Shown here one piece after another: positions 1,898 through 22,974 of a DNA stretch of 32,000 bases. The DNA is from Candidatus Auribacterota bacterium (GTDB lineage: Bacteria > Auribacterota > UBA6266). The notes below the pieces were generated by a model that searched no databases, had not been told where the DNA came from, and was given only the letters and a program-made list of their open reading frames with translations. The stretch covers positions 1,749 through 33,748 of the forward strand of contig JAGLRQ010000079.1 in NCBI GenBank assembly GCA_023136205.1, written 5' to 3'. Positions within the stretch are counted from its first letter, which is position 1; every line of letters begins with the position of its first letter. A program made the translations under genes and the position numbers.

Positions 1898-2101
1898 ATG
1901 GATACCAAAAAGTTTGGCAAAAAAATCAAACTGGCCCGGGTAGAACAAGACCTGAACCAAACCCAGCTTGCCCGGAAAATTGGTGTCAAACAAAAAAGTA
2001 TTTCCCGTTACGAAACCGGGGCGTCTATGCCATCAATTGAAACCCTGGTTAAAATTGCTAAGGTATTGAAAAAGTCGGCAGGGTATTTTCTGGATGGATA
2101 A
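1898..2101 (+). CDS. XRE-family helix-turn-helix transcriptional regulator
   Basis: 67 aa. GKKIKLARVEQDLNQTQLARKIGVKQKSISRYETGASMPSIETLVKIAKVL is the classic Cro/C1-type HTH_3 pattern (Q-x-x-L-A...S-x-I-S-x-x-E-x-G). AGAGG lies upstream of the ATG. Confidence 0.85.
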   Translation: MDTKKFGKKIKLARVEQDLNQTQLARKIGVKQKSISRYETGASMPSIETLVKIAKVLKKSAGYFLDG

Positions 2102-3824: not shown

Positions 3825-4027
3825 ATGAAAAAGCGAACCCTCTTAATAATCACTTTAGTATGCTGCCTCTTAACCGGATATGCTTTTTCTTCAGATGTAA
3901 CTGACCTTTCCGGGAAGAAATATTTCCCAGCAGTAAAGGAAGCCATAGATAATTCAGAGAAATCTATATTTATGGTTGTGTATATTGTGGACTTTGATGA
4001 AAGGGTGATGAGCGACAATTATAATTA
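3825..4027 (+). pseudogene. N-terminal fragment of a secreted PLD-family (Nuc-like) nuclease/phospholipase, truncated by an IS
   Basis: Signal peptide MKKRTLLIITLVCCLLTGYAFS, then SGKKYFPAVKEAIDNSEKSIFMVVYIVDF. This matches the N-terminal YF-P...I..A..SI...Y pattern of Nuc-type PLD proteins. After about nt 4012-4027 the reading frame runs into IS end sequence. Confidence 0.6.
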
Positions 4028-5648
4028 CCAGTCTCATTGCCTCAAGAAGAAATGTTACCATTAGTTACAACCTGCGTCTACACCAATTGGGGCAACTACT
4101 GCCTGTCCAATATTTTTATCTAAACATGAATACACTAACTGCTTTGCCATAATCTGCCTCCACTCCTGAACTCGCCGTTGCAGAGTTCTCAATTGACCAT
4201 CTGTGAATTTTCCAGGATGATCTTTCTGAAGCCGTTCAAATAACAATTTAGCAGTAGTATCAGGTTCACTTTGTAGCCATTGGAGTACATCGGGCCAAAC
4301 TTTTTCGAATGGATTTTTCCGCGTTCTCCAATAATGAGGTTTTGTTATAGTTTTTTGATGTGTTGGACGCACCTCGCCAGAATGCCAGAGTTGTGGTAGT
4401 TGTGCAAGAAATTGCTCTAAGCTATTTCGACCCGGGCCAGTGGATTCATTCGGAGAAACCAAAGCAGCTAATGCGGCTTGGTCGTCTCGTATACGATGTA
4501 GTAAATACACGGGGTCAAGTTCTTTGCGCTGCAATTGGAGTTTTTCCTTTGTTGATTGCATGACAGTAGGGTTGTTACACAAACGCTCACAAGGTGTCAT
4601 CGGTTTGTCATACAATCGCTTGACCTTGGATCCTTCTCGCTTCTTTTCTCGCAATTTGAAGGAAGGCTGGTAATAATTTACATAAAACCTAACCGCTCGG
4701 TATAGATGAGCAAGTGCTTGACCGGCTACGACTCCTGAAAAACGCTCATATCCAACAAACCGCCGTATCACCGCCCCATTCTTTTGTTCGATCCAAGCTT
4801 GGTCATTTGGGCAAGACGGTCGTGATCGAGTAAAGTCAATGCTATGATTTTTGCAATATGAAAGTAGCGTATCGTTGATAAAAGCACTATCGTTATCAGA
4901 GTCGATTCTTAGAATGGGAAATGGTAGTTGCTGTCGCAGTACCTCAAGTCCCTCCACCACAAGGGATTGTTCTCTCGCCAGAAGCGGAATACACTCGACC
5001 CAACCTGAATATATATCTGTTGCAACAAGGCTGTGGATAAAAGAACCGGCCATGGATCCGCCACCGTGCACCACAAAATCGATTTCTAAATATCCTGGAG
5101 ATGGTTCATTCCAATCTGCAAATGTATGGACAGGCACTTGCGCACTGACTTTATTTGGCTTTCGGCGACGTTTTCTACGTGAACATCCCTGTTTCCGAAC
5201 ATCCGAAAGCAACCGGTCGAGAGTTGCTGCGCTGGCTAAAAGTAGTCGTCGCCTCACCTCTGGGTCGAGTTCTATATGACCGTGACGTTCCATCGCATCC
5301 ACTAAATTAGGCAATATAGCCTTTAGTCTCTTACCGCAAATTCGATCTGCGACTTCCCAAGTAACAATTAATGCTTCTCTCACAGCTTCGTTGTAAATGC
5401 GTCTGCTTTTGGTAGGTTTATTATCAAAGCCTGCCAGATTTCTGTTTCCAAGCAGGCGAGTAGCGTGTTTTCGGTGATATCCGGCAACCGCAACAAACTC
5501 GTCCAATATCCTCGCCTTTTCATTTTTTGGAGCCTTTATATAACGATTTCTCAGGACTTCCAAGAGTTCATTTCTTGTATGCTTACTAATTTTTTTCCCC
5601 ATTTTTTGCCTCCTGATTTTGGTAACATTATCATGAGGCAACGACTGG
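4028..5648 (-). mobile_element. Insertion sequence (~1.6 kb) with one rve-type DDE transposase gene; outer ends approximate
   Basis: Imperfect terminal inverted repeats. Left is CCAGTCTCATTGCCTCAAGAAGAAATGTTACC (4028-4059). The reverse complement of 5621-5648 is CCAGTCGTTGCCTCATGATAATGTTACC. The single ORF fills the space between them. The interior is visibly GC-richer than its flanks, and the element interrupts a recognisable PLD gene. Confidence 0.75.
4061..5602 (-). CDS. DDE (rve/integrase-core) transposase, possibly ISNCY-like
   Basis: DDE candidates are LEIDFVVHGG, RIDSDNDSAFIN and AWIEQKNGAVIRR. The N-terminus has an HTH-like KNEKARILDEFVAVAGYHRKHATRLL. I place the start at the internal Met (MGKKISKH..., plus-strand cat at 5600-5602) because AGGAGG lies 6 nt upstream of it. 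The track start at 5641 sits inside the right inverted repeat. Confidence 0.85.
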   Translation of the reverse strand: MGKKISKHTRNELLEVLRNRYIKAPKNEKARILDEFVAVAGYHRKHATRLLGNRNLAGFDNKPTKSRRIYNEAVREALIVTWEVADRICGKRLKAILPNLVDAMERHGHIELDPEVRRRLLLASAATLDRLLSDVRKQGCSRRKRRRKPNKVSAQVPVHTFADWNEPSPGYLEIDFVVHGGGSMAGSFIHSLVATDIYSGWVECIPLLAREQSLVVEGLEVLRQQLPFPILRIDSDNDSAFINDTLLSYCKNHSIDFTRSRPSCPNDQAWIEQKNGAVIRRFVGYERFSGVVAGQALAHLYRAVRFYVNYYQPSFKLREKKREGSKVKRLYDKPMTPCERLCNNPTVMQSTKEKLQLQRKELDPVYLLHRIRDDQAALAALVSPNESTGPGRNSLEQFLAQLPQLWHSGEVRPTHQKTITKPHYWRTRKNPFEKVWPDVLQWLQSEPDTTAKLLFERLQKDHPGKFTDGQLRTLQRRVQEWRQIMAKQLVYSCLDKNIGQAVVAPIGVDAGCN

Positions 5649-6218
5649 CACTTGGCAACAAAAGTTATGAGTCAAGGCGATGATGAGATTGTTATCATAG
5701 GAAGCACAAACTGGTCTAATTCAGCCTTAAGAAGAAACAACGAAACCTCTGCCCTTATAAAATCCAAGGAGCTGGCAAAATCTCTTCTTACAAACTTCTT
5801 CCATATCGCCATTGATTATGAGGCAAGTAAATCAATTCATCAAAAAGCTTCTCCCCTTGCAATATGCAGATATTTTTTGGAAGACTCCGATCTGGCAGGT
5901 AGAATGATGACTTCCCGCGATGAAAGAGCCTTTGATGTATATCTCTTGCTCCTGAAAGATAACCTTGCAGAGTCAGGGTTTAACTATAACAAGATAGCCT
6001 TGCAATTGGGTTTAGACAAGAAAATGGCTGTGAATGACTATAGAAGACAGATCAACAAGACCTTAAGAAAGCTTGAGAGCCAATACAACTTAACGGACGA
6101 GTACGGAAAAGAGCAAGTCCCAGAGGCATTTGATATAGTTTCCCAAAAGGCGATAGACAATCCCAGAAAAACTTATAAATATGTCGTGGGGATTTTGAGA
6201 AATGCTGCAGTCCCCTGA
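5649..6218 (+). pseudogene. C-terminal fragment of the same PLD-family gene, with a DnaD-like or winged-helix-like tail
   Basis: KVMSQGDDEIVIIGSTNWSNSALRRNNETSALIKSKELAKSL is the second half of an HKD motif region (GSxNxS...N-N-E). The frame is open only from 5637. No RBS or plausible independent start is present. The C-terminal AIDNPRKTYKYVVGILRN resembles the DnaD-type ...RN..YI..ILRNW motif. Confidence 0.6.
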
Positions 6219-6307
6219 AATAAGTATTGTGTTTCCGAAATTCCTTTTAGAAGGCGGAGAAATGCTTGATCTATGTTAAGATGTTTCTATAAAATGAATT
6301 ATGTATT

Positions 6308-6469
6308 ATGAATAACAAAAAACCCGGACTCATAGAACGATTCTTTGCCTGGTTGTTTGAGCTAGTGAATGATATTGTTGAAGATGCAACCGACTCAATA
6401 GCTGAGAAAGTAGTGGGAAAAATGAAAGAAGAGCAGTTTTTGGAAGGAAAAGATAAGGAAAACGAATAG
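6308..6469 (+). CDS. Small hypothetical protein (53 aa), below the ORF-track cutoff
   Basis: My translation: MNNKKPGLIERFFAWLFELVNDIVEDATDSIAEKVVGKMKEEQFLEGKDKENE, stop TAG at 6467-6469. Its stop lies 46 nt upstream of my preferred sce7726-like start (6516) and 7 nt upstream of the track start (6477). No clear RBS. Confidence 0.3.
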   Translation: MNNKKPGLIERFFAWLFELVNDIVEDATDSIAEKVVGKMKEEQFLEGKDKENE

Positions 6470-6515
6470 AAAATAGGTGTCCGTCTATCATTTCACTCAT
6501 TTTGTCAAAAATATC

Positions 6516-7148
6516 ATGGATAAAGCAGAGCAAATTAAAACTGAAGCTATCAAATGGTTACTTAAAGGAAATTTATCCTTTAAATCCAACAGGGATGCGA
6601 TTGGGACAGAAGTCCTTTTTTCTGTAAAGAGGAGAAAGGCTGATTTACTAATTCTTTCTACCAATACCCATGCAATTGAAATAAAGAGCGATTTCGACAA
6701 GCTTGACAAATTAAAAACGCAATTACAAGATTACTACAATTCATTTGATAAAGTATCGGTCATAACTACCCTGAGACATGTTTGCAATATTAAAAAAGTT
6801 TTATCCCCAAAGGCTGGCTTAATTATTTTTGATAATGCATCTTTCAAAGTTTTAAGAAAAGCAAAGCGACAAAAACGATTAAACAAAAGCTCATTATTAA
6901 TGTTCCTGCCAAAAGATGAATTAACCAAAATATATAGGGCACCAAGAGGTCAACGACTTTCCGTAACAGAAATACGTATGAGGATTAAGAACCAATTAAA
7001 TGCGGACGAAATCAGGGAAAAAGCTTTCTCGCATTTAAAAAAACGATACAGAAAGCTTTTTGAATTATTCCTACATGATACCGCTGGCATTATAATCTGG
7101 GATGAGCTTCGGGGGTTATCTGGTAAGATCAATAAGTTGCATGGTTAA
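6516..7148 (+). CDS. sce7726-family-like protein (MmcB-like PD-(D/E)xK nuclease fold)
   Basis: RKADLLILSTNTHAIEIKSDFDKLDKLKTQLQDYYNSFDKVSVIT shows the D...E-x-K core and the downstream L..Q...Y...FD pattern I associate with the sce7726/MmcB family. The track start is GTG 6477. I prefer ATG 6516 (MDKAEQIKTEAIKWLL) but cannot decide between them. Confidence 0.7.
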   Translation: MDKAEQIKTEAIKWLLKGNLSFKSNRDAIGTEVLFSVKRRKADLLILSTNTHAIEIKSDFDKLDKLKTQLQDYYNSFDKVSVITTLRHVCNIKKVLSPKAGLIIFDNASFKVLRKAKRQKRLNKSSLLMFLPKDELTKIYRAPRGQRLSVTEIRMRIKNQLNADEIREKAFSHLKKRYRKLFELFLHDTAGIIIWDELRGLSGKINKLHG

Positions 7149-8227
7149 AAGAGATTATTCCTGAGAGTGATGTAAATATTCATTCTGATTGAAATCCAAA
7201 AGGAAGGTGAAAGCCCTTGCGGATATCCTTCTGATGCTGATTCAATCTGTTTAATGCCCCAACAATTTCTTACATTATTTTTTGTTCTTCTATATGCCTT
7301 TTTACCAACAATCATTTGAGCAACTCTTTTGTAAGCATCAGCGTAAGTTCTTTCTATATTACTTCTTCTTGAACGATGATAAAATATCTGGTTTTCCGTC
7401 GGAACGTCAATTCTTGGTATCCACCCATTCCCGCCGGCCTGATCACTCCTAACTGGATGAATGGAAGCATAATCACTATAAACAATTTCCTTGTCGATGT
7501 TATCATTTACCCGAGTATAAAATTCTACTTCCTCAAGATTAAAAGTCCCATCATCTTCGCCCCCAAATTCCGTTGGATTTTTAGGGTATGAGGTTGCAGA
7601 TAAAACAAGCTTTTCAATGGAATAGTTTTCCAATTCTTTAATTAAACTTTTTGCCTTCGTTGCGTTATCTTCGGCTTTACCTTGTGTTATAAACCCGAAG
7701 TCCATAAGAACAATCAGCTTACTAATTAAGAGCGCCTCGTTAATAATATCGAGATCGTGTTTATAGTCTGGGTAATCTGCGGGGAAACGATAAACGAGAG
7801 ATTCAAACTTCCCATCTAAAGCCTCTACCTGTTCTTTTAATCGTTCATTATATTCTTTCTCATTAGAAACATCTTTATCGGATATTTGAATTGTGGGAAT
7901 TATAGAAGGGAAATCTTCTTGAAGTTCTGTCACCAATGTAACCCATTTCCCATAGCCCTTTGTAGTAGTTTGCAACCCTTCAATCTGTTCATTAATTAAA
8001 TTTGGTTCTGTCGTTAAATCAAGAATAAAGCACCTATCCTCAAAAACTTCTTCCAATTTTCTCAACCTTCTGTAGATATCACCACCTTCCAAGTATTTCG
8101 TCCTTCGAGATTTTGTTAATTCCACTAACGGCGTGATCTTATCTTTCACATCACTGGAAAGATTTTTTAAAGCTCTAAGTTCAGCGTCGGTCGTCTTAAT
8201 TATTGGAATATAAGTAATATCGCTCAT
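7145..8227 (-). CDS. Beta-protein family (PF14350-like, sce7725-like) protein
   Basis: The N-terminus YIPIIKTTDAELRALKNLSSDVKDKITPLVELTK matches the Y-x-P-x-L/I-K...E..AL..L......I-x-P-L-x-E signature of the phage P4 Beta / sce7725 family. The ATG overlaps the ImmA stop (plus-strand tcat at 8224-8227). Confidence 0.75.
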   Translation of the reverse strand: MSDITYIPIIKTTDAELRALKNLSSDVKDKITPLVELTKSRRTKYLEGGDIYRRLRKLEEVFEDRCFILDLTTEPNLINEQIEGLQTTTKGYGKWVTLVTELQEDFPSIIPTIQISDKDVSNEKEYNERLKEQVEALDGKFESLVYRFPADYPDYKHDLDIINEALLISKLIVLMDFGFITQGKAEDNATKAKSLIKELENYSIEKLVLSATSYPKNPTEFGGEDDGTFNLEEVEFYTRVNDNIDKEIVYSDYASIHPVRSDQAGGNGWIPRIDVPTENQIFYHRSRRSNIERTYADAYKRVAQMIVGKKAYRRTKNNVRNCWGIKQIESASEGYPQGLSPSFWISIRMNIYITLRNNLF

Positions 8228-8775
8228 AAACCATGTCCTGACATTCCTAAACTTTTTGCTCTTAGTCGCACAGTCAAAGTAGAAACCTTAAAGAATCTTG
8301 CCAAATCTTTAATTTCCTTAACCCCAGACCGTACTTGTTTTTTAAATTTATATTCAGGCATTAATATTTCACTAGCAAATTCGTTAGCCTGCCATTCTGA
8401 TCTTTTAGATTCTCCACCTCTAAAAAAAATCTTATCCTCAAAAATATGGCTTAAATGTTTATGCTTACAAAAATGACCTAATTCATGAGCAATTGTATAT
8501 CTTTGCCTGTTGGGATGATGATAAGTATTCACTTGTATTCTCCATTGTCCCGACTCTTCATCATAAAAAAGCTTGCCAGAAAGATCATCACTTAACTCAA
8601 CAAACTCCACCCTAATACCAAGTTTTTTAGCTAAGTCTTCCACGTCCAAAGGGTCGCAATTAACTTCATGGGCCTTCGCGAAGCGTATCAATTTATCTGC
8701 AGTATCAATTAAAGCAATATCATTCTTATTGGCTTCTTGTCGGGTTAAAAATATTTTACGTCTTACTATTGCCAT
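8224..8775 (-). CDS. ImmA/IrrE-family (M78-like) zinc metallopeptidase
   Basis: HEXXH motif in RQRYTIAHELGHFCKH, with the downstream EWQANEFASEILMP typical of ImmA/IrrE. The start codon directly abuts the stop of the upstream membrane-protein gene (8775/8776). Confidence 0.85.
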   Translation of the reverse strand: MAIVRRKIFLTRQEANKNDIALIDTADKLIRFAKAHEVNCDPLDVEDLAKKLGIRVEFVELSDDLSGKLFYDEESGQWRIQVNTYHHPNRQRYTIAHELGHFCKHKHLSHIFEDKIFFRGGESKRSEWQANEFASEILMPEYKFKKQVRSGVKEIKDLARFFKVSTLTVRLRAKSLGMSGHGL

Positions 8776-9414
8776 TTAGCCCTTCCTTTTCTTTGGAAAA
8801 CTCTGGCCTCTCAGGTGTTTCCTTCCCTGATGCGGCGCATCTGTATCCTTAACTTCATCATAACTTCTTGCATTTAATGTTTTTTCGAGAAATTCAATTC
8901 TATCTTCTAGGTTAAGCACTTGCATTAATTCATCCGAATTTTTAAATTCTGTAAATTTCATATCTATAATATTTTTTAAAATAATCTGAAATGATTCACT
9001 ACACTCCAAAGCCTCATTAGCCAACTCTCGAGCTTGGTGTCTTGATGAAAAATACACATACATAAAACTAACAGCCATTAAAACACCAATAACACTTAAT
9101 AATAATGTTATTATAAGTTCATAAAAATCTGTTATTTCTTGAGTATAAAATTCCAATGAATGGTTATATTTACTCTCGGTTAAAATTGCTCCTTTTTCTT
9201 GTTGCGGGCTCGGAGTTTTTATTTGTAATTCTTTGAGGTCTTTTTCATGGACATTTGTATTAACTGTCTGTTCTTCTTGAGTTTTTAGAGATTCTGAAGC
9301 CAAAGAAGGTGTTACATTCAGGAAATATCCCATAAACATAGCATATGTTACGCTGATCAAAAACAATACAGTGCAAAACAATATTTTCGATGAATATTTC
9401 TTTTTCTTATCCAT
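8776..9414 (-). CDS. Two-TM membrane protein, first gene of the ImmA/Beta operon
   Basis: Hydrophobic segments ILFCTVLFLISVTYAMFMGYFL and LIITLLLSVIGVLMAVSFMYVYF. The C-terminal region is helical and charged, ending in a basic tail (GRKHLRGQSFPKKRKG). No family recognised. Confidence 0.6.
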   Translation of the reverse strand: MDKKKKYSSKILFCTVLFLISVTYAMFMGYFLNVTPSLASESLKTQEEQTVNTNVHEKDLKELQIKTPSPQQEKGAILTESKYNHSLEFYTQEITDFYELIITLLLSVIGVLMAVSFMYVYFSSRHQARELANEALECSESFQIILKNIIDMKFTEFKNSDELMQVLNLEDRIEFLEKTLNARSYDEVKDTDAPHQGRKHLRGQSFPKKRKG

Positions 9415-9423
9415 TAAGAATCC

Positions 9424-9452
9424 TTAATATATGTGTTTATTGAGATTGTCAA
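9424..9452 (-). promoter_or_regulatory. Sigma70-like promoter for the TM/ImmA/Beta operon, implying a near-leaderless mRNA
   Basis: Minus strand reads TTGACA (9452-9447), 17 nt, TATTAA (9429-9424), 9 nt, ATG (9414-9412). Confidence 0.35.
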
Positions 9453-9722
9453 TTATTTAACTATTATAATCACTAGTGTCTAATTAAGAAATGTTCCATT
9501 TACGTAAGGTGTTAATATATTGATAGCAACAACAAAATTTAGATTTTTCGACTTGAAACGATTTTTGTTAAACCATTTTTTGTTCCGACGACATAGACGA
9601 TAACATACACACCCTAACCATCTAATAATATTACACGCGATCTTATTTAGCAAGAAATCTTAATGGCCCCCCTTTGTTGTAACCACTTTTCTTTCATGCT
9701 AAAATATCTAAATGAGGGAATA

Positions 9723-10604
9723 ATGAGTTTTGATTTCAATCCAAATATAAGAAAGTTTTCATTTAAAAATGCTTTAATACTCGCTGAAGCATCGGAATTA
9801 GCCTACAAATCACGAGCGGAATATAAAAAGATTCTTAAAGAAAAGTGGGGATTCTCGGATATTTACCCCCTGGATAAAAATGAGACCCAGGGTTTTGTTG
9901 CAAAGAAAGAAGATATGATATTAATTGCTTTTCGGGGGACGGAAGAAACAAAGAATGAAGATATATTTACAGATATACTGGCGTGCCAGACAAAAACAGA
10001 ACTGGGAAAAGTCCATTATGGGTTTTTACGGGCCCTTAAAGCTGTCTGGAAGGACGTGCTGACAACAGTTAAGAATTATCAGGACAATAATCAGCCTGTA
10101 TGGATTACAGGACATAGCCTGGGAGGGGCTTTAGCCGCCCTTGCTTCCGCCAAGCTCGCATCAATAAATGCATGTCAAAAGATTACCGGGGTATATACAT
10201 TTGGACAACCAAGAGTAGGAGATAAAAACTTCAAAGAAAATTTTGAAAGGTTACTTCCAGGCGGAACCTATAGAGTTGCCAACTTTAAGGATCCGGTTAC
10301 TCTGGTGCCATTGAATATTAATTTAAAAATATGGGAAAAACGCATAATCTTTCAATACGATCATGCGGGTAAAATTATATTGTTTAATGAAGCCGGGGAA
10401 ATAGCTGAATCCGGTGATTTGGTTACGCGATGGGTGTTAATTTGGGTAGCTGTTTTAGGTTTTGTAGTTGCGTTGATTGTAAAAATGTTGAGAAAAATGA
10501 AATTAGCAGAGGGATTGTTAAAATTGTTTAAAAATCCGGCAACCCCGCATGGGCTAGATCAATATAAAGAAAATATTATTAAAAATTTAGCACACAACAG
10601 GTAA
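9723..10604 (+). CDS. Class-3 (fungal-type) lipase / alpha-beta hydrolase with a C-terminal TM helix
   Basis: Nucleophile elbow WITGHSLGGALAALASAKL, with FRGTEE upstream and FGQPRVGD downstream, as in Lipase_3. The C-terminal hydrophobic segment is WVLIWVAVLGFVVALIVKML. The start is moved to ATG 9723 (GAGGG lies 5 nt upstream). The track start is 9663. Confidence 0.8.
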   Translation: MSFDFNPNIRKFSFKNALILAEASELAYKSRAEYKKILKEKWGFSDIYPLDKNETQGFVAKKEDMILIAFRGTEETKNEDIFTDILACQTKTELGKVHYGFLRALKAVWKDVLTTVKNYQDNNQPVWITGHSLGGALAALASAKLASINACQKITGVYTFGQPRVGDKNFKENFERLLPGGTYRVANFKDPVTLVPLNINLKIWEKRIIFQYDHAGKIILFNEAGEIAESGDLVTRWVLIWVAVLGFVVALIVKMLRKMKLAEGLLKLFKNPATPHGLDQYKENIIKNLAHNR

Positions 10605-15116: not shown

Positions 15117-16397
15117 CTATAAATTTCTTTTAAAAAACCTATGAAATGATTTTGTTGTAACCCCTTCATATTTCTTAAGGTCCACATTGTTGGTTTTAAA
15201 CATATCAATAGCTAGAGATTCTTCCATTGGATATGCTTCTAAATATACGACTTGAATAATACCCGAAGCGATAATTTTTTTACAGCATAACATACAGGGG
15301 AAAGCAGAAGTATATAATTTTGTTCCATGCAATGATGTGCTTCCCAATCTGGCAGCTTGAATAATTGCTGCTTCTTCAGCATGTACAGCCCTGCAAACAC
15401 TCAATAATTTCCCAGGAAAAACTTCGTTTTTAAAACCACAATCTACACATAACTTGCTATTCTTTTCTAATTTATGCCCACATTTTCTACAATATATATT
15501 ATTTTCTAAAAACTCTTTCTTTATTTTGGCCCGATAACATTTTTCAGGGTATTTTTTCTTACAATCTTCGTCTTCGTAAGGGACATTATTGCAACCGGTG
15601 GCAATTACATATCCTATAGCGCCCTTCAATTTTTCTTTATCAAGTTCTTTTTTAAAAGAGTAAGTATCGCGAACTATAACTGCCCCTACTTGCCTTTTGG
15701 AACATCTTGATTGCAAAGCTACACTGCAGGCTTGGTGCATATACGCCTCATTAGGGTAAGGAGGCCTACTCTCAGAATTTTCTATGAGATCATAAAAATC
15801 GGATAATCTCTGTGCATAACTATCAATAATCTTACCATTTTTTGTCCCATCACAATCAAAAAAATCTTCTTCTGCATTAACAGAAATATCTGCCATTTCC
15901 ATGCATTTTTTTACTTGTTGCCCATGTAGATTTTTCGTATCCCCGGCGTCCCGTTTTTCAATCTCACCAAACTCGTCTTTATGTTTAAACAAATCTTTTA
16001 ATCTATCCCATCTTTTGTCATGGGATGCATCAATAGATAATAAAACAAAATGTTTTTTAAATTTTCTTTGAAAAGTTTCAATTTCATGTGGATTTCTGAA
16101 ACATTCAATTACAGCTTTTTTGGGCTTTCTTTTGCATATTTCTTCAACTATTGGAGCTACAGTTTCGGGGTTTTCAGGGTTCTTTTTTCTTAATTCATCA
16201 CCTAAATCTTGTAAAATCATTCTTTTTTTATTGGGTTGTTTCTTATCAAAATCTTTGACTTTTTTTTTCGCTTTTTCTTTCAACAATGCTGAAATACTAA
16301 AATATTCCATTCCTTTGGTATTATGAAAGAACTTACTGGTTTCAGTGCAACCAGATCCAAATCTTCCGGTTAATCCAATTATCATTGTATCTTTCAT
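15117..16397 (-). CDS. Nucleotide-kinase-like domain fused to a CMP/dCMP-type zinc deaminase (architecture of the anti-phage dCTP deaminase)
   Basis: The N-terminus IIGLTGRFGSGCTETSKF is P-loop-like, with Cys where the Walker A Lys is expected. The C-terminal half has ACSVALQSRCSKRQVGAVIV, GCNNVP, the zinc motifs CRAVHAEEAAI and AFPCMLCCKKII (H-A-E ... P-C-x-x-C), and an inserted zinc ribbon CRKCGHKLEKNSKLCVDCG. Confidence 0.75.
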   Translation of the reverse strand: MKDTMIIGLTGRFGSGCTETSKFFHNTKGMEYFSISALLKEKAKKKVKDFDKKQPNKKRMILQDLGDELRKKNPENPETVAPIVEEICKRKPKKAVIECFRNPHEIETFQRKFKKHFVLLSIDASHDKRWDRLKDLFKHKDEFGEIEKRDAGDTKNLHGQQVKKCMEMADISVNAEEDFFDCDGTKNGKIIDSYAQRLSDFYDLIENSESRPPYPNEAYMHQACSVALQSRCSKRQVGAVIVRDTYSFKKELDKEKLKGAIGYVIATGCNNVPYEDEDCKKKYPEKCYRAKIKKEFLENNIYCRKCGHKLEKNSKLCVDCGFKNEVFPGKLLSVCRAVHAEEAAIIQAARLGSTSLHGTKLYTSAFPCMLCCKKIIASGIIQVVYLEAYPMEESLAIDMFKTNNVDLKKYEGVTTKSFHRFFKRNL

Positions 16398-17000: not shown

Positions 17001-18899
17001 CTAGCCTACGGGTACCTGATTATTTGCAATATATTTTCTGATAATTTCTATAAATTCATCGGCGTAGGATTCTAATTTTTTCTCTCCTACACCAAAGATC
17101 TTCGCGAAAGCCTCTTTTGTAACCGGTTTTATTAGAGCCATATCTCTTAGTGACTTATCTCCAAAAATGATATATGCGGGGACTCCTTCATCATGAGCCA
17201 TTTCCGACCTTTTTTCGCGTAATGACCGGAACAATTCTTTATTTACTCCTTCCCAATCTTTTTCTCTTTTCTGTTTTCGCTTCGCCGCGACTTGTTTTTT
17301 CTTCGCGGTTACCAGCGGTTTTGTCAAAACAGGAACTATTTCTCCTTTCAGAACCTGTTTTCCCGATAATGTCAGGGATAGTGTTGAAAATTCTTCATCT
17401 CTTCGCAAAAAGCCCTGGCCCACCAACTGTTCAACCATATACCTGATAAAAGTAATTGATGACTCAGCCATTATGCCGAAAGTAGATAAGAGCTGATGAT
17501 TCATGCGGTTAACCTGATCGGTTGTTTTCCCTTTTAAAACATCGGCTACGCAGGATGCTCCAAACCCGAAGCTTTTTCCCCGGCTGACTCTTACAACACA
17601 CGATATAATTTTTTGAGCTGTGACCAATGATTCTTCAACCATTTCAAGCTCATTTAAACAGTAGTCACATGCCTGGCAGGAGGGTTTGTCATAATCCTGT
17701 CCGAAATAGTTTACAAGAAATCTATGCCTGCAGTGAGGACGGGAGCAGAAATTATAGAGGATGTTTAGTTTATCCATCATAACCTTTTCATGAGGTGATG
17801 TTTCTATGAAGGACCTCATAACCCGGTAATCCCCGCCTCCGAAAAACATGTAGCAGTGTGAGTTAAGCCCGTCGCGCCCGGCACGCCCGGTTTCCTGATG
17901 ATAATGTTCAATACTTTTCGGCATCGCGGCATGGATAATAAACCGGATGTTAGAGCGGTCAATTCCCATGCCAAAGGCAATGGTGGCAACAATTATATCA
18001 ACTTCTTCACGGATAAATTTGTCCTGGTTTATATGCCTGGTAGTGTCAGAGAGCCCGGCATGGTATGGAACATTCTTAAACCCGAGCGTATTCAGTTTCT
18101 CTGAAATATTTTCGACGTCTTTCCTCCGCAGACAATAGATAATCCCCGGTTCATCCGGGTGTTTTTCTAAAACGTCTGTTATCTGCTTTATTAAATTTGA
18201 ACGGGGTATCACCCTGTAGGATAAGTTTGGGCGGTCTATCTGCCTGATATGGATTTCAGGATTATTAAGCTGCAGCTGTTCCAAAATATCCTGCTGTACC
18301 GCTACAGTAGCCGTAGCTGTAAAAGCATGAACACAAGAGGATTTGAATCTTTCCTTGATAAACTTCAATTTGCGGTAATCTTCTCTGAAATCGTGTCCCC
18401 AATGGCTGATACAATGGGCTTCATCAATAACAAAAAACGCGGGGTTAACTGATGTTAAGAGGTTGATGGTTGATTTTTGCTGAAGGCGTTCCGGAGAAAT
18501 ATATAAAATTTTCACCTTCCGTTTTCTAATAAGGCTAATTTCTGTCATTTGTTCTTTTGGTGTCAGGCTGGAATTCAGACAGCTTGCTGTAATCCCCTTT
18601 GCTTTAAGGTCATCAACCTGGTCTTTCATTAATGATATCAGCGGTGAAATAACTACAGCCATACTTCCTTTTAACAAAGCCGGAAGCTGAAAACACAAAG
18701 ACTTCCCTCCTCCCGTAGGCATAACCGTCAATGACTCTTTTTCTCTCAGTATTGATAAAATTACATCTTCCTGCAAAGCCCGAAATGATGTATAGCCCCA
18801 GTATTGTTTTAAAGCTTCATACATGGGTTTCTGAAACCAATCCGTTTTTCCGCTCATTTTCGCGCAGACTCCAATAAATTTATCAGCCCGTAAAATCAT
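17001..18899 (-). CDS. recQ: ATP-dependent DNA helicase RecQ
   Basis: FRALQEDVI, motif I TGGGKSLCFQLPA, DEAH box VIDEAHCISHWGHDFR, QETGRAGRDG, the zinc-binding CRHRFLVNYFGQ...CQACDYC, and a C-terminal HRDC-like VPAYIIFGDKSLRDMA. The start may be the internal Met at 18857 (MSGKTDWFQ). Confidence 0.9.
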   Translation of the reverse strand: MILRADKFIGVCAKMSGKTDWFQKPMYEALKQYWGYTSFRALQEDVILSILREKESLTVMPTGGGKSLCFQLPALLKGSMAVVISPLISLMKDQVDDLKAKGITASCLNSSLTPKEQMTEISLIRKRKVKILYISPERLQQKSTINLLTSVNPAFFVIDEAHCISHWGHDFREDYRKLKFIKERFKSSCVHAFTATATVAVQQDILEQLQLNNPEIHIRQIDRPNLSYRVIPRSNLIKQITDVLEKHPDEPGIIYCLRRKDVENISEKLNTLGFKNVPYHAGLSDTTRHINQDKFIREEVDIIVATIAFGMGIDRSNIRFIIHAAMPKSIEHYHQETGRAGRDGLNSHCYMFFGGGDYRVMRSFIETSPHEKVMMDKLNILYNFCSRPHCRHRFLVNYFGQDYDKPSCQACDYCLNELEMVEESLVTAQKIISCVVRVSRGKSFGFGASCVADVLKGKTTDQVNRMNHQLLSTFGIMAESSITFIRYMVEQLVGQGFLRRDEEFSTLSLTLSGKQVLKGEIVPVLTKPLVTAKKKQVAAKRKQKREKDWEGVNKELFRSLREKRSEMAHDEGVPAYIIFGDKSLRDMALIKPVTKEAFAKIFGVGEKKLESYADEFIEIIRKYIANNQVPVG

Positions 18900-19088
18900 A
18901 CAATATCAGATGTAACTTGTACTCTTTCTATCAACTTAAATCAAGCACATTTGAGATACTATCAACATTTTCAGGGTGGCCTGACCACTTTTAATATGGG
19001 GTTAATAAAATAATAAAATGGCTTGACACAATTCAAGGATACGCACAGAATAATATTAACCAAAGACAAAGCCCATGGAGGAAGTTTC

Positions 19089-20984
19089 TTGAAAGCGAAA
19101 AAATATAGAAGCTTTTCCTTTTTTAAGTTTTTTTTCTTTTCTTTTGTTATCTTTCTCTTAGTTGTTTTTATCTTAATCATAACAGCGCCGGCACTCATCT
19201 CTTCAGCACAGGGAAAAAGCCTTCTGTTAAAGATAATAAACAACAACTTTTCAGGAAAAATCAGCATTGAATCAATTAATTTAAACTGGCGGGGCGAACA
19301 GTCAATAAAAGGCTTTTCATTAACCGATGATAACAATTCCGTTACTTTTAAGGCTTTCGAAACTCAACTATCTCTCCTGGATATTCTTCTCAAAAAAAGA
19401 TTAGATTTCGGAACAACCCGGCTGGAAGATTTATATGCCGAAATATCTTTGTATGAAACAAAAGACTTAGGCATAAAGGCGCGGGAGGCCGCAAAAAAGG
19501 CCCAACCTGAAAAGACCGATCTAATTGCGTGGTTTTTGCCACGGACATTTTCAGGCAACATGGAAATAATAAACGCGAACCTTGTGATCTTAAAGCCGGG
19601 CATTGATCCCGCGGAATTCAACAATGTTGCCAATCTTTCGACGAACCTGCATGTTGAGATAACTGAGGACATAATCAAACTGTCAAAGGCCGCAAAAATA
19701 AAATGCGGCATATCTCCGGCTCTTTACAAAATAATCATAGAAAACAATAACTTAAACAACCGGCTGCTGCTGGCGGAACCAGCCAGCCTTGAAACGAACA
19801 TTGAAACTTTTGAAATACTCGTAAAAAAACCCGTTAAAGATTTTTTATCTCTGCTAAACAGCGCAAAGTTTGATATCAAAATGCGCACGCAAAAATTCTC
19901 TTTAACGGATACCCTTTATAAGCAGGCCATAATTTTAGCCCCTTTAACTATTTCCGCCTCAAGCAAAAACGCAAGTTTGAAAACAATTCTCAACGCGGAC
20001 GCGGTTTTCACATGCACAGATCATTCCGGCAATATTTTGGACAAAGGCGATATTTCTGTCCAAAGCGAGATCTCCGATATTGTAAAGCCTGACGGTTCTT
20101 TTAATAAAAACGGCTTGCTTTTAAAGCTGAATACCAGTTTTAAAGGATTATCTACGGCCAGGCTGGATAAGCTTTTCAATACGAATAACACCATCACTGC
20201 CGTTATGGGAAAAACATTAGATTTAAAAGCCTCAGCAGAACTCAAAGGTCTCAAAGGGCCTGTTGATATTTATTTCAAAACCAGTAATTCAACCGCGGCC
20301 ATATCCGCGCTTATCAATAAGGATTCTGTGCTTTTGCGCGATGATGTAAAAGCTGAATTGACGGTAACCCCTGCTCTCGGGGCATTAGTGTTGAAAAATA
20401 TCAATCCGATACTGATTACTGCTGTAAGTTCCAGCAGGCCTATTTATATAACCATAAATCAGAACGGGTTTTACGTACCCCTGAACAAAGCTTCTTTTTC
20501 CGATATTAAAATTGAAGAAGCGGTTATTGATCTCGGAGAACTAACGCTTGAAAACGGCGGTTTGCTCAATCCGTTGGTGGCATTTTTAAAATCAACATAC
20601 GGCAGACAGATGACAGCCAGCTTCACACCTCTTAAAGCCAGCCTCGCGGAAGGGATTGCTCAATATTCCAGAATGGATACCGTTATAGCAAACAGTTTCC
20701 ATATAGCTACGTGGGGAACAATTGATATAGAAAACGACACTCTTGATGTTACACTGGGCCTAACATCTGATACCTTGGACAAGGCATTTGATATTGAAGG
20801 CCTTTCAGAAGATTATATTCTAAAAATCCCGGTTCGCGGTTCAACAGAAAACCCAAAAGTAAACTGGGCAGAAGCAGCAAAACAAATCGGGACGCTTGTT
20901 TTAAAAAGAAAAATCGATGAAAAGCTCCCCGGGCTGGGCACCGCAATTGAAGAATTGTTTAACAAGCCGGATGGAAAAGATTAG
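19089..20984 (+). CDS. AsmA/TamB-like membrane-anchored protein (assignment tentative)
   Basis: An N-terminal anchor FFFFSFVIFLLVVFILIITAPALI is followed by a long beta-rich region (GKISIESINLNWRGEQSIKGFSLTDDNNSV...). I place the start at TTG 19089, where GGAGGA lies 6 nt upstream. The track start TTG 19023 is part of a TTGACA -35-like hexamer. Confidence 0.45.
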   Translation: MKAKKYRSFSFFKFFFFSFVIFLLVVFILIITAPALISSAQGKSLLLKIINNNFSGKISIESINLNWRGEQSIKGFSLTDDNNSVTFKAFETQLSLLDILLKKRLDFGTTRLEDLYAEISLYETKDLGIKAREAAKKAQPEKTDLIAWFLPRTFSGNMEIINANLVILKPGIDPAEFNNVANLSTNLHVEITEDIIKLSKAAKIKCGISPALYKIIIENNNLNNRLLLAEPASLETNIETFEILVKKPVKDFLSLLNSAKFDIKMRTQKFSLTDTLYKQAIILAPLTISASSKNASLKTILNADAVFTCTDHSGNILDKGDISVQSEISDIVKPDGSFNKNGLLLKLNTSFKGLSTARLDKLFNTNNTITAVMGKTLDLKASAELKGLKGPVDIYFKTSNSTAAISALINKDSVLLRDDVKAELTVTPALGALVLKNINPILITAVSSSRPIYITINQNGFYVPLNKASFSDIKIEEAVIDLGELTLENGGLLNPLVAFLKSTYGRQMTASFTPLKASLAEGIAQYSRMDTVIANSFHIATWGTIDIENDTLDVTLGLTSDTLDKAFDIEGLSEDYILKIPVRGSTENPKVNWAEAAKQIGTLVLKRKIDEKLPGLGTAIEELFNKPDGKD

Positions 20985-21628
20985 ATACTTTTCTTAAATA
21001 TTACAAGCCCTATTAAACCGGAAAAAAGTAAAAGCAAAGTATTTAATTCGGGTATTACCTGTGTCCTGAATATTTGAAACTCTCCATAGTTGCTGCCGGA
21101 CGCAAGTTTACTGCCCCATATCCAACTGGCATTATCGCTAATCCCGTCAATTTTACCCCACGGAGAACTTCCATGAACTTTGCTGTGTTTAACAGGACTC
21201 CATAATGCGACTGCAATTTCCTGGTCCATAACAAATTGTGAAGGAATGCTATCGCCATCATCTAAATCCTTCCAAGACAGATAAACCTCCCAGGCGGAAG
21301 TATTTGTTAATAACAAACCGGCGTCAGATACAAACTGTCCTAAAAAACCCTGCGCGACATAATCATCACTCCAGGCCGCTACATATATGTAATCGCACAG
21401 ATCCACATCAAATGTAAAGGTTTCAGCACAAGACCAGTTGTATTGGCCGGGGTTACCCCCAGCGCCAATTTCATTTCCTCCAACGAAAGTAACGTTTTCC
21501 CCATCACCAAAATATAATCCATAATGATTATCGACTGTAAGGGTCGCAGTGAAAGATAAATGGGACGCGCGACTCAAAGAAACCGGGATAACAGCAAAAA
21601 CACAAAAGAAGATAAAAATCCTGTTCAC
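20981..21628 (-). CDS. PEP-CTERM sorting-domain protein
   Basis: The C-terminus VIPELNTLLLLFSGLIGLVIFKKSI is a P-E-x anchor motif plus TM plus basic tail. The N-terminal signal peptide is NRIFIFFCVFAVIPVSLSRA. The start is moved to GTG 21628 (GGGAGA about 6 nt upstream). Confidence 0.7.
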   Translation of the reverse strand: MNRIFIFFCVFAVIPVSLSRASHLSFTATLTVDNHYGLYFGDGENVTFVGGNEIGAGGNPGQYNWSCAETFTFDVDLCDYIYVAAWSDDYVAQGFLGQFVSDAGLLLTNTSAWEVYLSWKDLDDGDSIPSQFVMDQEIAVALWSPVKHSKVHGSSPWGKIDGISDNASWIWGSKLASGSNYGEFQIFRTQVIPELNTLLLLFSGLIGLVIFKKSI

Positions 21629-21748
21629 ATATTTTCTCCCTCGTTTCGGGCTACAATTAACAGAACACCAATCGGGACAAAACAAACCAACTGTTCATTA
21701 TAAGCTTTTCCCCAAAAGAAGTCAATCGCGTAACCTTGTGAACGGGAG

Positions 21749-22213
21749 TTAATATGTTTTCTTCGCTTCCATTTTCGCGTCGATAAGTTCTCTATGAGAT
21801 ACCTTTAGAAGATTTGCAATTCTGTGGATAAGCTGGTCCTCGTATTTATCAAGCCGCCCATCGGCAAATATTACTTTCCAAATATTTACAAGCACATTAA
21901 GCTTCTCATCATAAGAAAGGTTTTTGTCAACCATTTTCGTAAACCGGTACAGATCAACGCTGTTTTGTTTTTCTTCGCCGGAAACATTGATAAGGATTTG
22001 CGCGTCTCCTTCAGCAAGGGCGAAATCTTCTTCAAGTATTTTTAGAATCACATTTTTTTCCTTATCGTCTATTTTCCCATCTGCCATAGCAGCTTCCAGC
22101 AAAAGGGCGCAAGAGGCAATCCTGACCTTTTCTTTTGCGTTTGTCTCTTTGCTGCTTTCTCCCGCTTTTTGCTCTTCTGAAAAAAACTCTTTTAATTTCT
22201 CAAACAAATTCAT
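21749..22213 (-). CDS. TerB-family (tellurite-resistance TerB-like) protein
   Basis: Two ADG-x-[IL]-D-x-x-E repeats (AMADGKIDDKEKNVI and FADGRLDKYEDQLI), then the HRIANLLKVSHRELIDAK tail typical of the TerB domain. Confidence 0.75.
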   Translation of the reverse strand: MNLFEKLKEFFSEEQKAGESSKETNAKEKVRIASCALLLEAAMADGKIDDKEKNVILKILEEDFALAEGDAQILINVSGEEKQNSVDLYRFTKMVDKNLSYDEKLNVLVNIWKVIFADGRLDKYEDQLIHRIANLLKVSHRELIDAKMEAKKTY

Positions 22214-22257
22214 ATTTATCTTTCCCCCTTAAAAACACCCTGCCCGGTTTTAACATA

Positions 22258-22974
22258 TTATTCCTTCCACGGCATAAATACCCCTTTCAATGTTCTCGGT
22301 TCTTCTATTGAAGCCGGGGAAAAACCATACCTGTAAGAGAGTTCCCTTACCGCGCGGCTTATTACAGCAGCGCTTAAAGCCGGCGTTACAAGAAGAATTC
22401 CCGCGCCGCTAATCACCCCCACAACAAAAAGAACTCCGAGATAAAACAAAACACCAAATGTAAAAAGAGGATGACAGACAGCCAAAGTTATGGCATCCTT
22501 CATTACTCTAAAAACACCCTTCACCCTGAAAGAAAGGGGTAATATGTAAACCATCCCCATACAATTAACGAACACCATTATGCCCATTGTAACAGCTATC
22601 AGCTTTCCCGCGATCCCAAAACGCGAACTGTAAAAAGAAAAACCCGCGAGAGCCAAGATTATAACAAACCACATAAAAATTGCAACCGCCGTTGATATAA
22701 AAAAATAGGTCTTAAATGCTTTGAAAAAATCTTTGATATTAACTTCCCTGTTAAAGCTAATTTCATCGGCAAGAAATATTATCGCGGCAGTCGCGGCAGG
22801 GCAAGTAATAACCGGCAGAGACAGAAAAAACCAGAGGATGCTGGCACCCAGGAACAGACCCATATTATCGAAAAACAGCCAGAAACTTTTGGATATAATA
22901 TTCAGATAGTCAAGCTTGCCTGCCGGATAGGCAGGTTTGACAACATCAGGCAATTCGTTTTTTTTCGGAGACAT
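22258..22974 (-). CDS. DUF624/YesL-like integral membrane protein
   Basis: FFDNMGLFLGASILWFFLSLPVITCPAATAAIIFL is the characteristic YesL N-terminal pattern. There are multiple TM segments. Its start overlaps the permease stop at 22974. Confidence 0.65.
   Translation of the reverse strand: MSPKKNELPDVVKPAYPAGKLDYLNIISKSFWLFFDNMGLFLGASILWFFLSLPVITCPAATAAIIFLADEISFNREVNIKDFFKAFKTYFFISTAVAIFMWFVIILALAGFSFYSSRFGIAGKLIAVTMGIMVFVNCMGMVYILPLSFRVKGVFRVMKDAITLAVCHPLFTFGVLFYLGVLFVVGVISGAGILLVTPALSAAVISRAVRELSYRYGFSPASIEEPRTLKGVFMPWKE

Follow-up and report, generated by a model that had tools for sequence, protein, structure and literature searches.

The gop-beta-cII cassette known from phage P4 protects E. 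coli against lambda and P1 (PMC9122126), and its toxicity is triggered by phage orf184 (bioRxiv 10.1101/2023.04.06.535777). In the passage of PMC9122126 that cites Ghisotti 1990, Gop is described as toxic when Beta is lacking. The anti-phage activity of this cassette is validated, yet its mechanism was not found in the searchable literature. A second system with a Beta homolog, PD-lambda-2, combines it with a HigB-like protein and an Xre-peptidase fusion and acts as an abortive-infection defence (PMC9519451). The peptidase protein of PD-lambda-2 is toxic by itself, and Beta is needed for defence, not for neutralisation (PMC9519451). Here we describe a four-gene locus in a stretch of 32,000 nucleotides (nt) of contig JAGLRQ010000079.1 from Candidatus Aureabacteria (hereafter the window), which encodes a membrane protein with two transmembrane segments (the TM protein), an ImmA-type peptidase, Beta and a cII/sce7726-family protein. 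We consider it probable that this locus is a four-gene, protease-bearing subtype of the P4-type gop-beta-cII anti-phage system. We call this form class I, defined by a long two-TM protein, ImmA and Beta with cII/sce7726, while the P4-type form has a short Gop and no ImmA. An initial annotation of the window, made from its letters, had proposed a new four-gene system. That claim shrinks to an undescribed but widespread subtype of a known system; the composition itself was rightly regarded as undescribed, in that our literature search found no paper on the TM-ImmA-Beta-cII form.

The features of the locus are listed here in window coordinates.

8776-9414, minus strand: TM protein gene, open reading frame (ORF) of 212 amino acids (aa), first in the operon
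8224-8775, minus strand: ImmA/M78 peptidase gene, ORF of 183 aa, Peptidase_M78
7145-8227, minus strand: Beta gene, ORF of 360 aa, PF14350
6516-7148, plus strand: cII/sce7726-family gene, 210 aa from the ATG at 6516; the longest ORF starts at the GTG at 6477 and has 223 aa
7145-7148: convergent 3'-3' overlap of Beta and cII, 4 nt, read in the sequence
9424-9452, minus strand: putative promoter-like element TTGACA-N17-TATTAA, hexamers read in the sequence
6308-6469, plus strand: 53-aa ORF located 5' of cII, a gene in public annotations, probably outside the system

The four ORFs and the coupled minus-strand operon were found where the initial annotation had placed them, with the junctions as it had read them. 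TM, ImmA and Beta form one operon in which all three genes are translationally coupled: the TAA stop of the TM gene is directly followed by the ATG of ImmA (8778-8773), and ImmA and Beta have a common ATGA at 8227-8224. The stop codon of the plus-strand gene does overlap that of Beta, its TAA lying at 7146-7148 and the minus-strand TAA being the complement of 7145-7147. The 4-nt overlap of the genes leaves no space for a terminator between the two genes. The true start of cII is likely the ATG at 6516 rather than the GTG at 6477; the 210-aa product agrees with the public annotation P0121 and with homologs of 209-211 aa. No homolog of the 53-aa ORF was present in any of 107 related loci. As for the strong promoter that had been ascribed to the operon, the hexamers and the spacer do exist in the AT-rich region upstream of the TM gene (TTGACA at 9452-9447, 17 nt, TATTAA at 9429-9424). 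Its strength is unproven, because a consensus promoter scan skipped this site and its 18 matches were no commoner than in shuffled sequences (14.4 +/- 3.8 expected). Moreover, the -10 hexamer ends 9 nt 5' of the TM gene ATG and overlaps a well-placed AAGGA Shine-Dalgarno sequence, and therefore both signals are usable together only if the mRNA is nearly leaderless.

The family memberships first proposed for Beta, cII and the peptidase held in profile searches. The 360-aa protein matched Beta in Pfam (PF14350, E 2e-55) and in PADLOC (beta, 3.8e-43), and more weakly PD-Lambda-2_C (3.4e-21). It is 25% identical to P4 beta across 97% of its length (tblastn E 2e-19). Its supposed membership of the sce7725 family is rejected: no NCBIfam sce7725 match to the window Beta was obtained (E 0.01), and none of 12 diverse Beta proteins (the window protein and 11 others, including P4 beta) was matched by sce7725 models even at E 10, the presence of the sce7725 model in the library being assumed from its sister model sce7726. 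In the literature the two labels sce7726 and sce7725 appear as names in genome reports only. The AlphaFold2 (AF2) model of Beta is a confident one (mean pLDDT 94.9, pTM 0.93) with alternating beta and alpha elements. Foldseek returned TIM barrels only, all of them weak (TM-score about 0.4): GH20, GH5, type I dehydroquinase, endonuclease IV and aldolases. The model suggests a divergent TIM-barrel-like fold for Beta. Profiles of Beta and cII gave chance-level matches only when searched against the sequences of solved structures. The sole close match to the Beta model in BFVD was A0A5J6TRS2, an uncharacterised protein of Gordonia phage Powerball (TM-score 0.74, 14% identity), which suggests that Beta-like proteins may exist in actinophages, diverged beyond the reach of hidden Markov models (HMMs). 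The invariant polar set of Beta comprises K11, E16, E36, R41, D70, R147, D176, S213, E233, Y250, D252, R272, D274 and R348. Because these charged and polar residues are invariant across class I and P4-type proteins alike, they suggest that Beta is an enzyme or a precise ligand-binding site and not a passive antitoxin.

The convergent gene encodes a homolog of P4 cII (BLASTP 32% identity, E 2e-21). It scored 114.6 bits with NCBIfam sce7726_fam (NF033832), for which the cut-off is 70, and 4.6e-29 with the PADLOC cll model; its precomputed Pfam family is PF26915 Phage_P4_cII. P4 cII is itself labelled as 'sce7726 family protein' by PGAP/RefSeq and is not a lambda-type helix-turn-helix (HTH) protein. 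The earlier statement that the locus has no cII-type gene is therefore incorrect. P4 cII shares the core residues E45, D56 and E68-x-K70 (ORF numbering), which 67-68 of 68 loci retain. Compared with the PDB, the AF2 model (pLDDT 90.1) matched 3dnx best (E 1e-5) and then, weakly, YaeQ, NucS and splicing endonucleases. We take 3dnx, YaeQ and NucS to be members of the PD-(D/E)xK superfamily, and the structure matches fit a restriction-endonuclease-like core. The protein is built of an N-terminal PD-(D/E)xK-like core and a helical C-terminal half with a SAP-like motif; a Pfam SAP domain match was obtained in the cII homolog of Pasteurella phage Pmp11. cII looks like a nuclease of the PD-(D/E)xK kind, whose SAP-like tail would bind DNA.

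The 183-aa protein matched Peptidase_M78 in Pfam (E 4.6e-24) and a metallo-protease PHROG (8.5e-25). Among PADLOC models the best match was capP (7.6e-34), followed by RmrA (1.9e-16) and PD-Lambda-2_B (1.4e-7), the last being confined to the peptidase part (profile positions 292-369). Its motif is H97-E98-x-x-H101, and HExxH is kept in all 68 of 68 loci. Neither an HTH nor a GAF domain was found in the protein. By these sequence features, it is classed as a stand-alone zinc metallopeptidase of the ImmA/IrrE-type M78 family. A reading as CapP of a CBASS system was rejected, with neither CapH nor a cyclase gene nearby. No HTH domain was detected anywhere in the cassette, and no HTH family was among the recurrent flanking families.

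The TM protein is K-rich at its N-terminus. Hydropathy places TM1 at about residues 11-29 and TM2 at about 100-118, with some 70 aa of loop between them, and TM2 is followed by a cytoplasmic tail of roughly 95 aa that is acidic and helical. Rather than a TM helix, TM1 might be a signal anchor or signal peptide (..SLA|SE). Conservation in the family is centred on TM2, with an FY motif ahead of it and serines after it. No match was found in Pfam, NCBIfam, PADLOC or PHROGs. P4 Gop has a comparable build, namely two adjacent hydrophobic TM helices followed by a coiled-coil-like tail, and the Gop-like protein of Pmp11 is similar. We compared the two families directly. BLASTP between the TM protein and Gop was not significant; the PADLOC gop model, which matches P4 Gop at 4.8e-70, missed both the window TM protein and a Vibrio TM protein; hhalign of a 73-sequence TM alignment with a 20-sequence Gop alignment gave a probability of 1.7%; and reciprocal hmmsearch of the two families was negative. 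None of these lent support to the idea of the TM protein as a divergent Gop. It is a positional analogue of P4 Gop, alike in position and general architecture only, and is presumed by that analogy to be a membrane effector. The earlier identification of Gop as an ImmA/M78-like peptidase is rejected: P4 Gop has no M78 Pfam match, and BLASTP with the window ImmA was null. It is consequently the TM protein that occupies the Gop slot, and ImmA, not the TM protein, that is the added gene.

The same arrangement recurs widely. A Beta alignment was used as query against one genome per species, which gave 70 loci, in which ORFs were called and searched with the window proteins. An ImmA homolog lies directly 5' of Beta in 67 of the 70, and an ORF of about 170-250 aa directly 5' of ImmA in 66 of these 67, the locus L039 being apparently disrupted. 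The ORFs in the TM slot nearly always have two hydropathy-predicted TM segments, the second about 75-85 residues past the first, and a cII homolog of about 205-230 aa lies downstream in nearly all loci. From IMG/VR came another 11 class I loci, along with about 22 of the P4 type, which lack ImmA and have a Gop of 118-152 aa and a longer cII. The class I and P4-type compositions are mutually exclusive. The class I set thus has 78 members, 67 genome loci and 11 viral-contig loci. All 78 have the ImmA gene between those of the TM protein and Beta, and it overlaps Beta in 53 of them, the overlap being 4 nt in 43 loci and 1 nt in the other 10. A convergent cII is seen in 68, and in 64 of these its 3' end overlaps that of Beta by 4-39 nt; in the remaining ten loci it is co-directional (four loci), upstream (one) or absent (five). 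These five (L025, L053, L056, L068 and L079) remained without a detected cII even with the family profile, and they are either natural three-gene variants or decayed copies. At the cII position, L056 has an Arc/ribbon-helix-helix protein and L025 a tyrosine integrase.

The neighbourhood comparison asked for at the outset thus found the four genes linked as a unit. The four-gene arrangement is far beyond chance, because the same layout occurs in 78 independent loci, and the TM-ImmA-Beta/cII cassette is a conserved unit. The pairwise-identity matrices of the four proteins correlate with each other in the 68 complete loci (rho 0.54-0.73, highest for Beta and cII at 0.73), as co-inheritance as a unit predicts. 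A rank correlation of scores to the window protein between Beta and ImmA gave rho 0.16 and is uninformative, the matrix comparison being more appropriate. Mean identity is 41% for ImmA, 36% for Beta, 29% for cII and 21% for the TM protein. The hosts represent at least nine bacterial phyla and include Planctomycetota, Omnitrophota, Elusimicrobiota, Bacteroidota, Ignavibacteria, Melainabacteria, Bacillota and Campylobacterota, as well as Alpha- and Gammaproteobacteria and Candidatus Aureabacteria. The Beta family is rare, with 454 clusters (50% identity) at E <= 1e-3 and 148 at E <= 1e-30 among 1.84 billion representatives. The plasmid collection had three records, and the isolated-phage collection only four (three P4 and Pmp11), all P4-type. 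In Pmp11 (L002, 3834-6866) the P4-type gop-like/beta/cII cassette lies directly downstream of a CI-like repressor gene, co-directionally. This is the position of rexAB in lambda.

Compared with the P4 cassette, which encodes Gop (133 aa) and beta (355 aa) in one direction and cII (264 aa) convergently, class I has homologous Beta (PF14350) and homologous cII (PF26915/sce7726), a membrane-protein gene in first place in an operon with beta and a convergent cII. In both, the membrane protein has two TM segments and a cytoplasmic helical tail, and both are carried on mobile elements, prophages or satellites. The relation to P4 gop-beta-cII suspected in the initial annotation is thereby upheld. On the other hand, class I has an extra ImmA/M78 gene between the TM gene and beta; its TM protein has 170-250 aa with an inter-TM loop of about 70 aa, in contrast to the Gop hairpin of 118-152 aa; its cII has about 210 aa instead of about 264 aa; and its cII overlaps the 3' end of beta, where P4 has a terminator-bearing gap. 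The hosts also differ, being marine, gut and environmental bacteria of many phyla and not enterobacteria. Set against the definition of Rst_gop_beta_cll/gop_beta_cll, the window locus has Beta, cII and the layout, but neither Gop nor the three-gene composition.

The other known systems share less with it. As in PD-lambda-2, a Beta-family protein directly follows an M78-type peptidase; however, in PD-lambda-2 the peptidase carries a fused Xre HTH and comes after a HigB-like toxin, and that system has neither a membrane protein nor cII. Its component C has a counterpart in the locus, but component A and the Xre-HTH fusion component B do not, and PD-Lambda-2_A (the HigB-like toxin) matched none of the nine proteins scanned. 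The class I protease was probably recruited independently of PD-lambda-2, because its sequence matches CapP far better than PD-Lambda-2_B. With the CapH/CapP and ImmR/ImmA switches, class I shares a stand-alone M78/ImmA protease with intact HExxH, but it lacks the HTH repressor partner, CBASS genes and a C-terminal GAF-like domain. Likewise, the HExxH domain of an ImmA/IrrE pair is present and the adjacent HTH repressor (ImmR, CapH or DdrO type) is not. By analogy with CapP and ImmA, the class I ImmA may plausibly be a signal-activated protease that unleashes a defence response. With the NCBIfam sce7725/sce7726 pair, the common point is the longest-ORF product of the cII gene, which passes the sce7726_fam cut-off; the difference is its partner, which is a Beta unmatched by sce7725 models.

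For class I itself we have shown homology and architecture, that it is conserved as a unit and that its catalytic motifs are intact; the anti-phage role and the neutralisation of Gop toxicity by Beta are taken from the literature on its relatives. On this basis class I may work as follows, the roles of ImmA, cII and the TM protein being our inference. The cassette would be expressed constitutively from islands or prophages, with the membrane protein as the lethal effector, which Beta would hold silent as it does Gop in P4. A phage-derived cue would lift this restraint and so lead to death or arrest of the infected cell (abortive infection). Such a cue might be a protein of the phage, in the way that orf184 acts on the E. 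coli system, or else a DNA signal that the cII nuclease either detects or produces. ImmA would be the switch; once activated, it might cut Beta, cII or the TM protein, the last of these within its cytoplasmic tail. Beta may accordingly be a restrainer or a sensor, and cII a DNA-directed sensor or a second effector. Moreover, a complex of ImmA and Beta is suggested because the coupling of their genes is tight.

Several points weigh against reading class I as an anti-phage subtype of gop-beta-cII. Its anti-phage function is carried over from experiments with relatives only, and the toxicity of the TM protein, which has no detectable homology to Gop, would be mere analogy. A strongly conserved, enzyme-like TIM barrel is odd for Beta as a simple antitoxin, and in PD-lambda-2 Beta is not the neutralising component (PMC9519451). 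The gene content points to no particular substrate for ImmA, as both the usual HTH partner and a conserved fifth gene are absent. Furthermore, 5 of the 78 loci have no detectable cII, and the defence-island context was sampled from immediate neighbours only.

What else might the cassette be? A toxin-antitoxin or addiction module that stabilises its mobile element, with Beta and/or ImmA neutralising a membrane toxin and no dedicated anti-phage role, would agree with its carriage on islands and prophages beside integrases and recombinases, and with the part of PMC9122126 in which Gop and Beta of P4 act as a toxin-antitoxin pair. However, phage protection was measured both for the P4-type relative (PMC9122126) and for PD-lambda-2 (PMC9519451), a set of four conserved components that are enzyme-like or membrane proteins exceeds what stabilisation needs, and many loci are chromosomal beside restriction-modification genes. 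We regard such a module as unlikely, though it is the strongest competitor. Much less credible is an induction switch of the ImmA/ImmR type, in which the protease would control lysogeny or excision by cutting a repressor, with the remaining genes as cargo. The ImmA family is the classical anti-repressor of ICEBs1 and phages, and the Pmp11 cassette follows a CI repressor gene; but no HTH repressor is conserved beside the cassette, ImmA is coupled by its 1- or 4-nt overlap to Beta and not to a repressor, P4-type cassettes function without ImmA, and in P2-like prophages the cassette sits among tail genes and not in the immunity region.

The two remaining alternatives concern composition. The initial annotation had seen a merger of two contexts, that is, a hybrid of a gop(peptidase)-beta pair with the sce7725/sce7726 pair, lacking cII and supplemented with a dedicated TM protein. 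The Beta, M78 and sce7726 memberships behind it are real, and the PADLOC gop model does not call this composition. The premises of the merger are nevertheless wrong, because P4 Gop is a two-TM protein and not a peptidase, P4 cII itself belongs to the sce7726 family (PF26915), and no sce7725 model matches any Beta tested. The locus keeps the layout of gop-beta-cII, with a protease inserted into it and a TM partner that is not homologous, and there is very little reason to retain the hybrid. The least probable of all, to the point of being hardly tenable, is that a TM-ImmA-Beta operon and an unrelated sce7726 nuclease gene are two independent units adjacent by chance. The loci in which cII is absent, co-directional or upstream (5, 4 and 1 of 78) would suit it. 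The convergent orientation in 68 of 78 loci, the overlapping stops in 64 of 68, the top rank of the Beta-cII matrix correlation and the retention of the Beta-cII pairing in the P4-type class all speak against it.

A protease-bearing subtype of gop-beta-cII would also carry meaning for its relatives. The second form of the Beta/cII core is phylogenetically much wider, occurring in P2-like prophages as well as in at least nine phyla. In current HMM sets the models of Gop are built essentially on P4-like elements, and the class I membrane protein escapes the PADLOC gop model; defence-annotation tools could gain a class I rule. Class I is also an evolutionary bridge to PD-lambda-2, whose peptidase-Beta pair is needed for defence. 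It supplies testable hypotheses (Beta as a TIM-barrel enzyme, cII as a nuclease, ImmA as a candidate switch), and its copies in culturable Vibrio, Shewanella, Marinobacter and Vreelandella make the mechanism of the whole family approachable. We would go one step further, tentatively, and with less confidence than in the subtype itself: Beta and cII may be the enzymatic core of a broad abortive-infection family, with Beta as enzyme or sensor and cII as DNA-directed nuclease, to which output and switch modules are exchangeable, and the class I ImmA, which has no repressor partner, may turn an infection signal into proteolytic release of an unclassified membrane effector. If true, protease-gated membrane killing would be a route undescribed for any defence system, and gop-beta-cII and PD-lambda-2 would be linked mechanistically.

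The surroundings of the cassette vary from locus to locus. The genes on either side are unrelated from one locus to another: 128 proteins yielded 140 Pfam families, no family being seen in more than four, and clustering of 643 flanking ORFs brought out no fifth gene, for instance one for a small HTH protein, that is conserved across clades. Restriction-modification components, integrases and recombinases are recurring neighbours. The only shared flanking genes are P2-like phage structural genes on seven viral contigs of IMG/VR (L073-L077, L081 and L094), where the cassette lies at about 3900-8700 between gpV-like baseplate and gpS/gpR-like tail-completion genes. These seven loci mark a cargo slot within the tail-gene block of P2-like prophages, a position different from the cos-proximal hotspot of E. 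coli P2.

In the window, the GC content is 31-38% at about 2-16 kb and 40-44% beyond, and the cassette appears to be in an integrated island of about 17 kb that ends beside recQ (17001-18899). Other features of the island are as follows.

Starting at 1421 and running off the left edge, minus strand: large serine recombinase, left end of the island
1898-2101, plus strand: XRE-family HTH gene
Minus strand: insertion sequence (IS)-type transposase with rve integrase core, 526 aa, abutting a 188-aa PLD ORF; the pair spans 4061-6218
9663-10604, plus strand: class-3 lipase (Lipase_3, 1e-29) with a hydrophobic segment near the C-terminus
15117-16397, minus strand: dCTP deaminase defence gene, 426 aa (PADLOC dCTPase, 4.2e-84)

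The matches of the 188-aa ORF to PLD-like nucleases (NucT-like and DrmC-like) are limited to some 50 residues at their C-terminus, and it looks like a PLD nuclease gene cut by the IS insertion. The lipase gene is transcribed divergently from the cassette, with 248 bp of AT-rich spacer between the two; because this adjacency is not conserved in other loci, the gene is probably a separate piece of cargo in the island. The dCTPase protein, apparently intact and encoded about 6 kb from the cassette, has a kinase-like AAA domain and a cytidine/dCMP deaminase domain. The region had been described as full of defence genes; the mobile island is there, but it holds only one clear intact defence gene and one remnant. 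Several uncharacterised genes are also part of the island, and core genes lie beyond it (RecQ, enolase, transporters). Finally, a TerB-domain protein (3.9e-29) is encoded at 21749-22213 on the minus strand, in a group of otherwise uncharacterised ORFs (19023-22974) that has recQ on one side and an ABC-transporter permease pair on the other.

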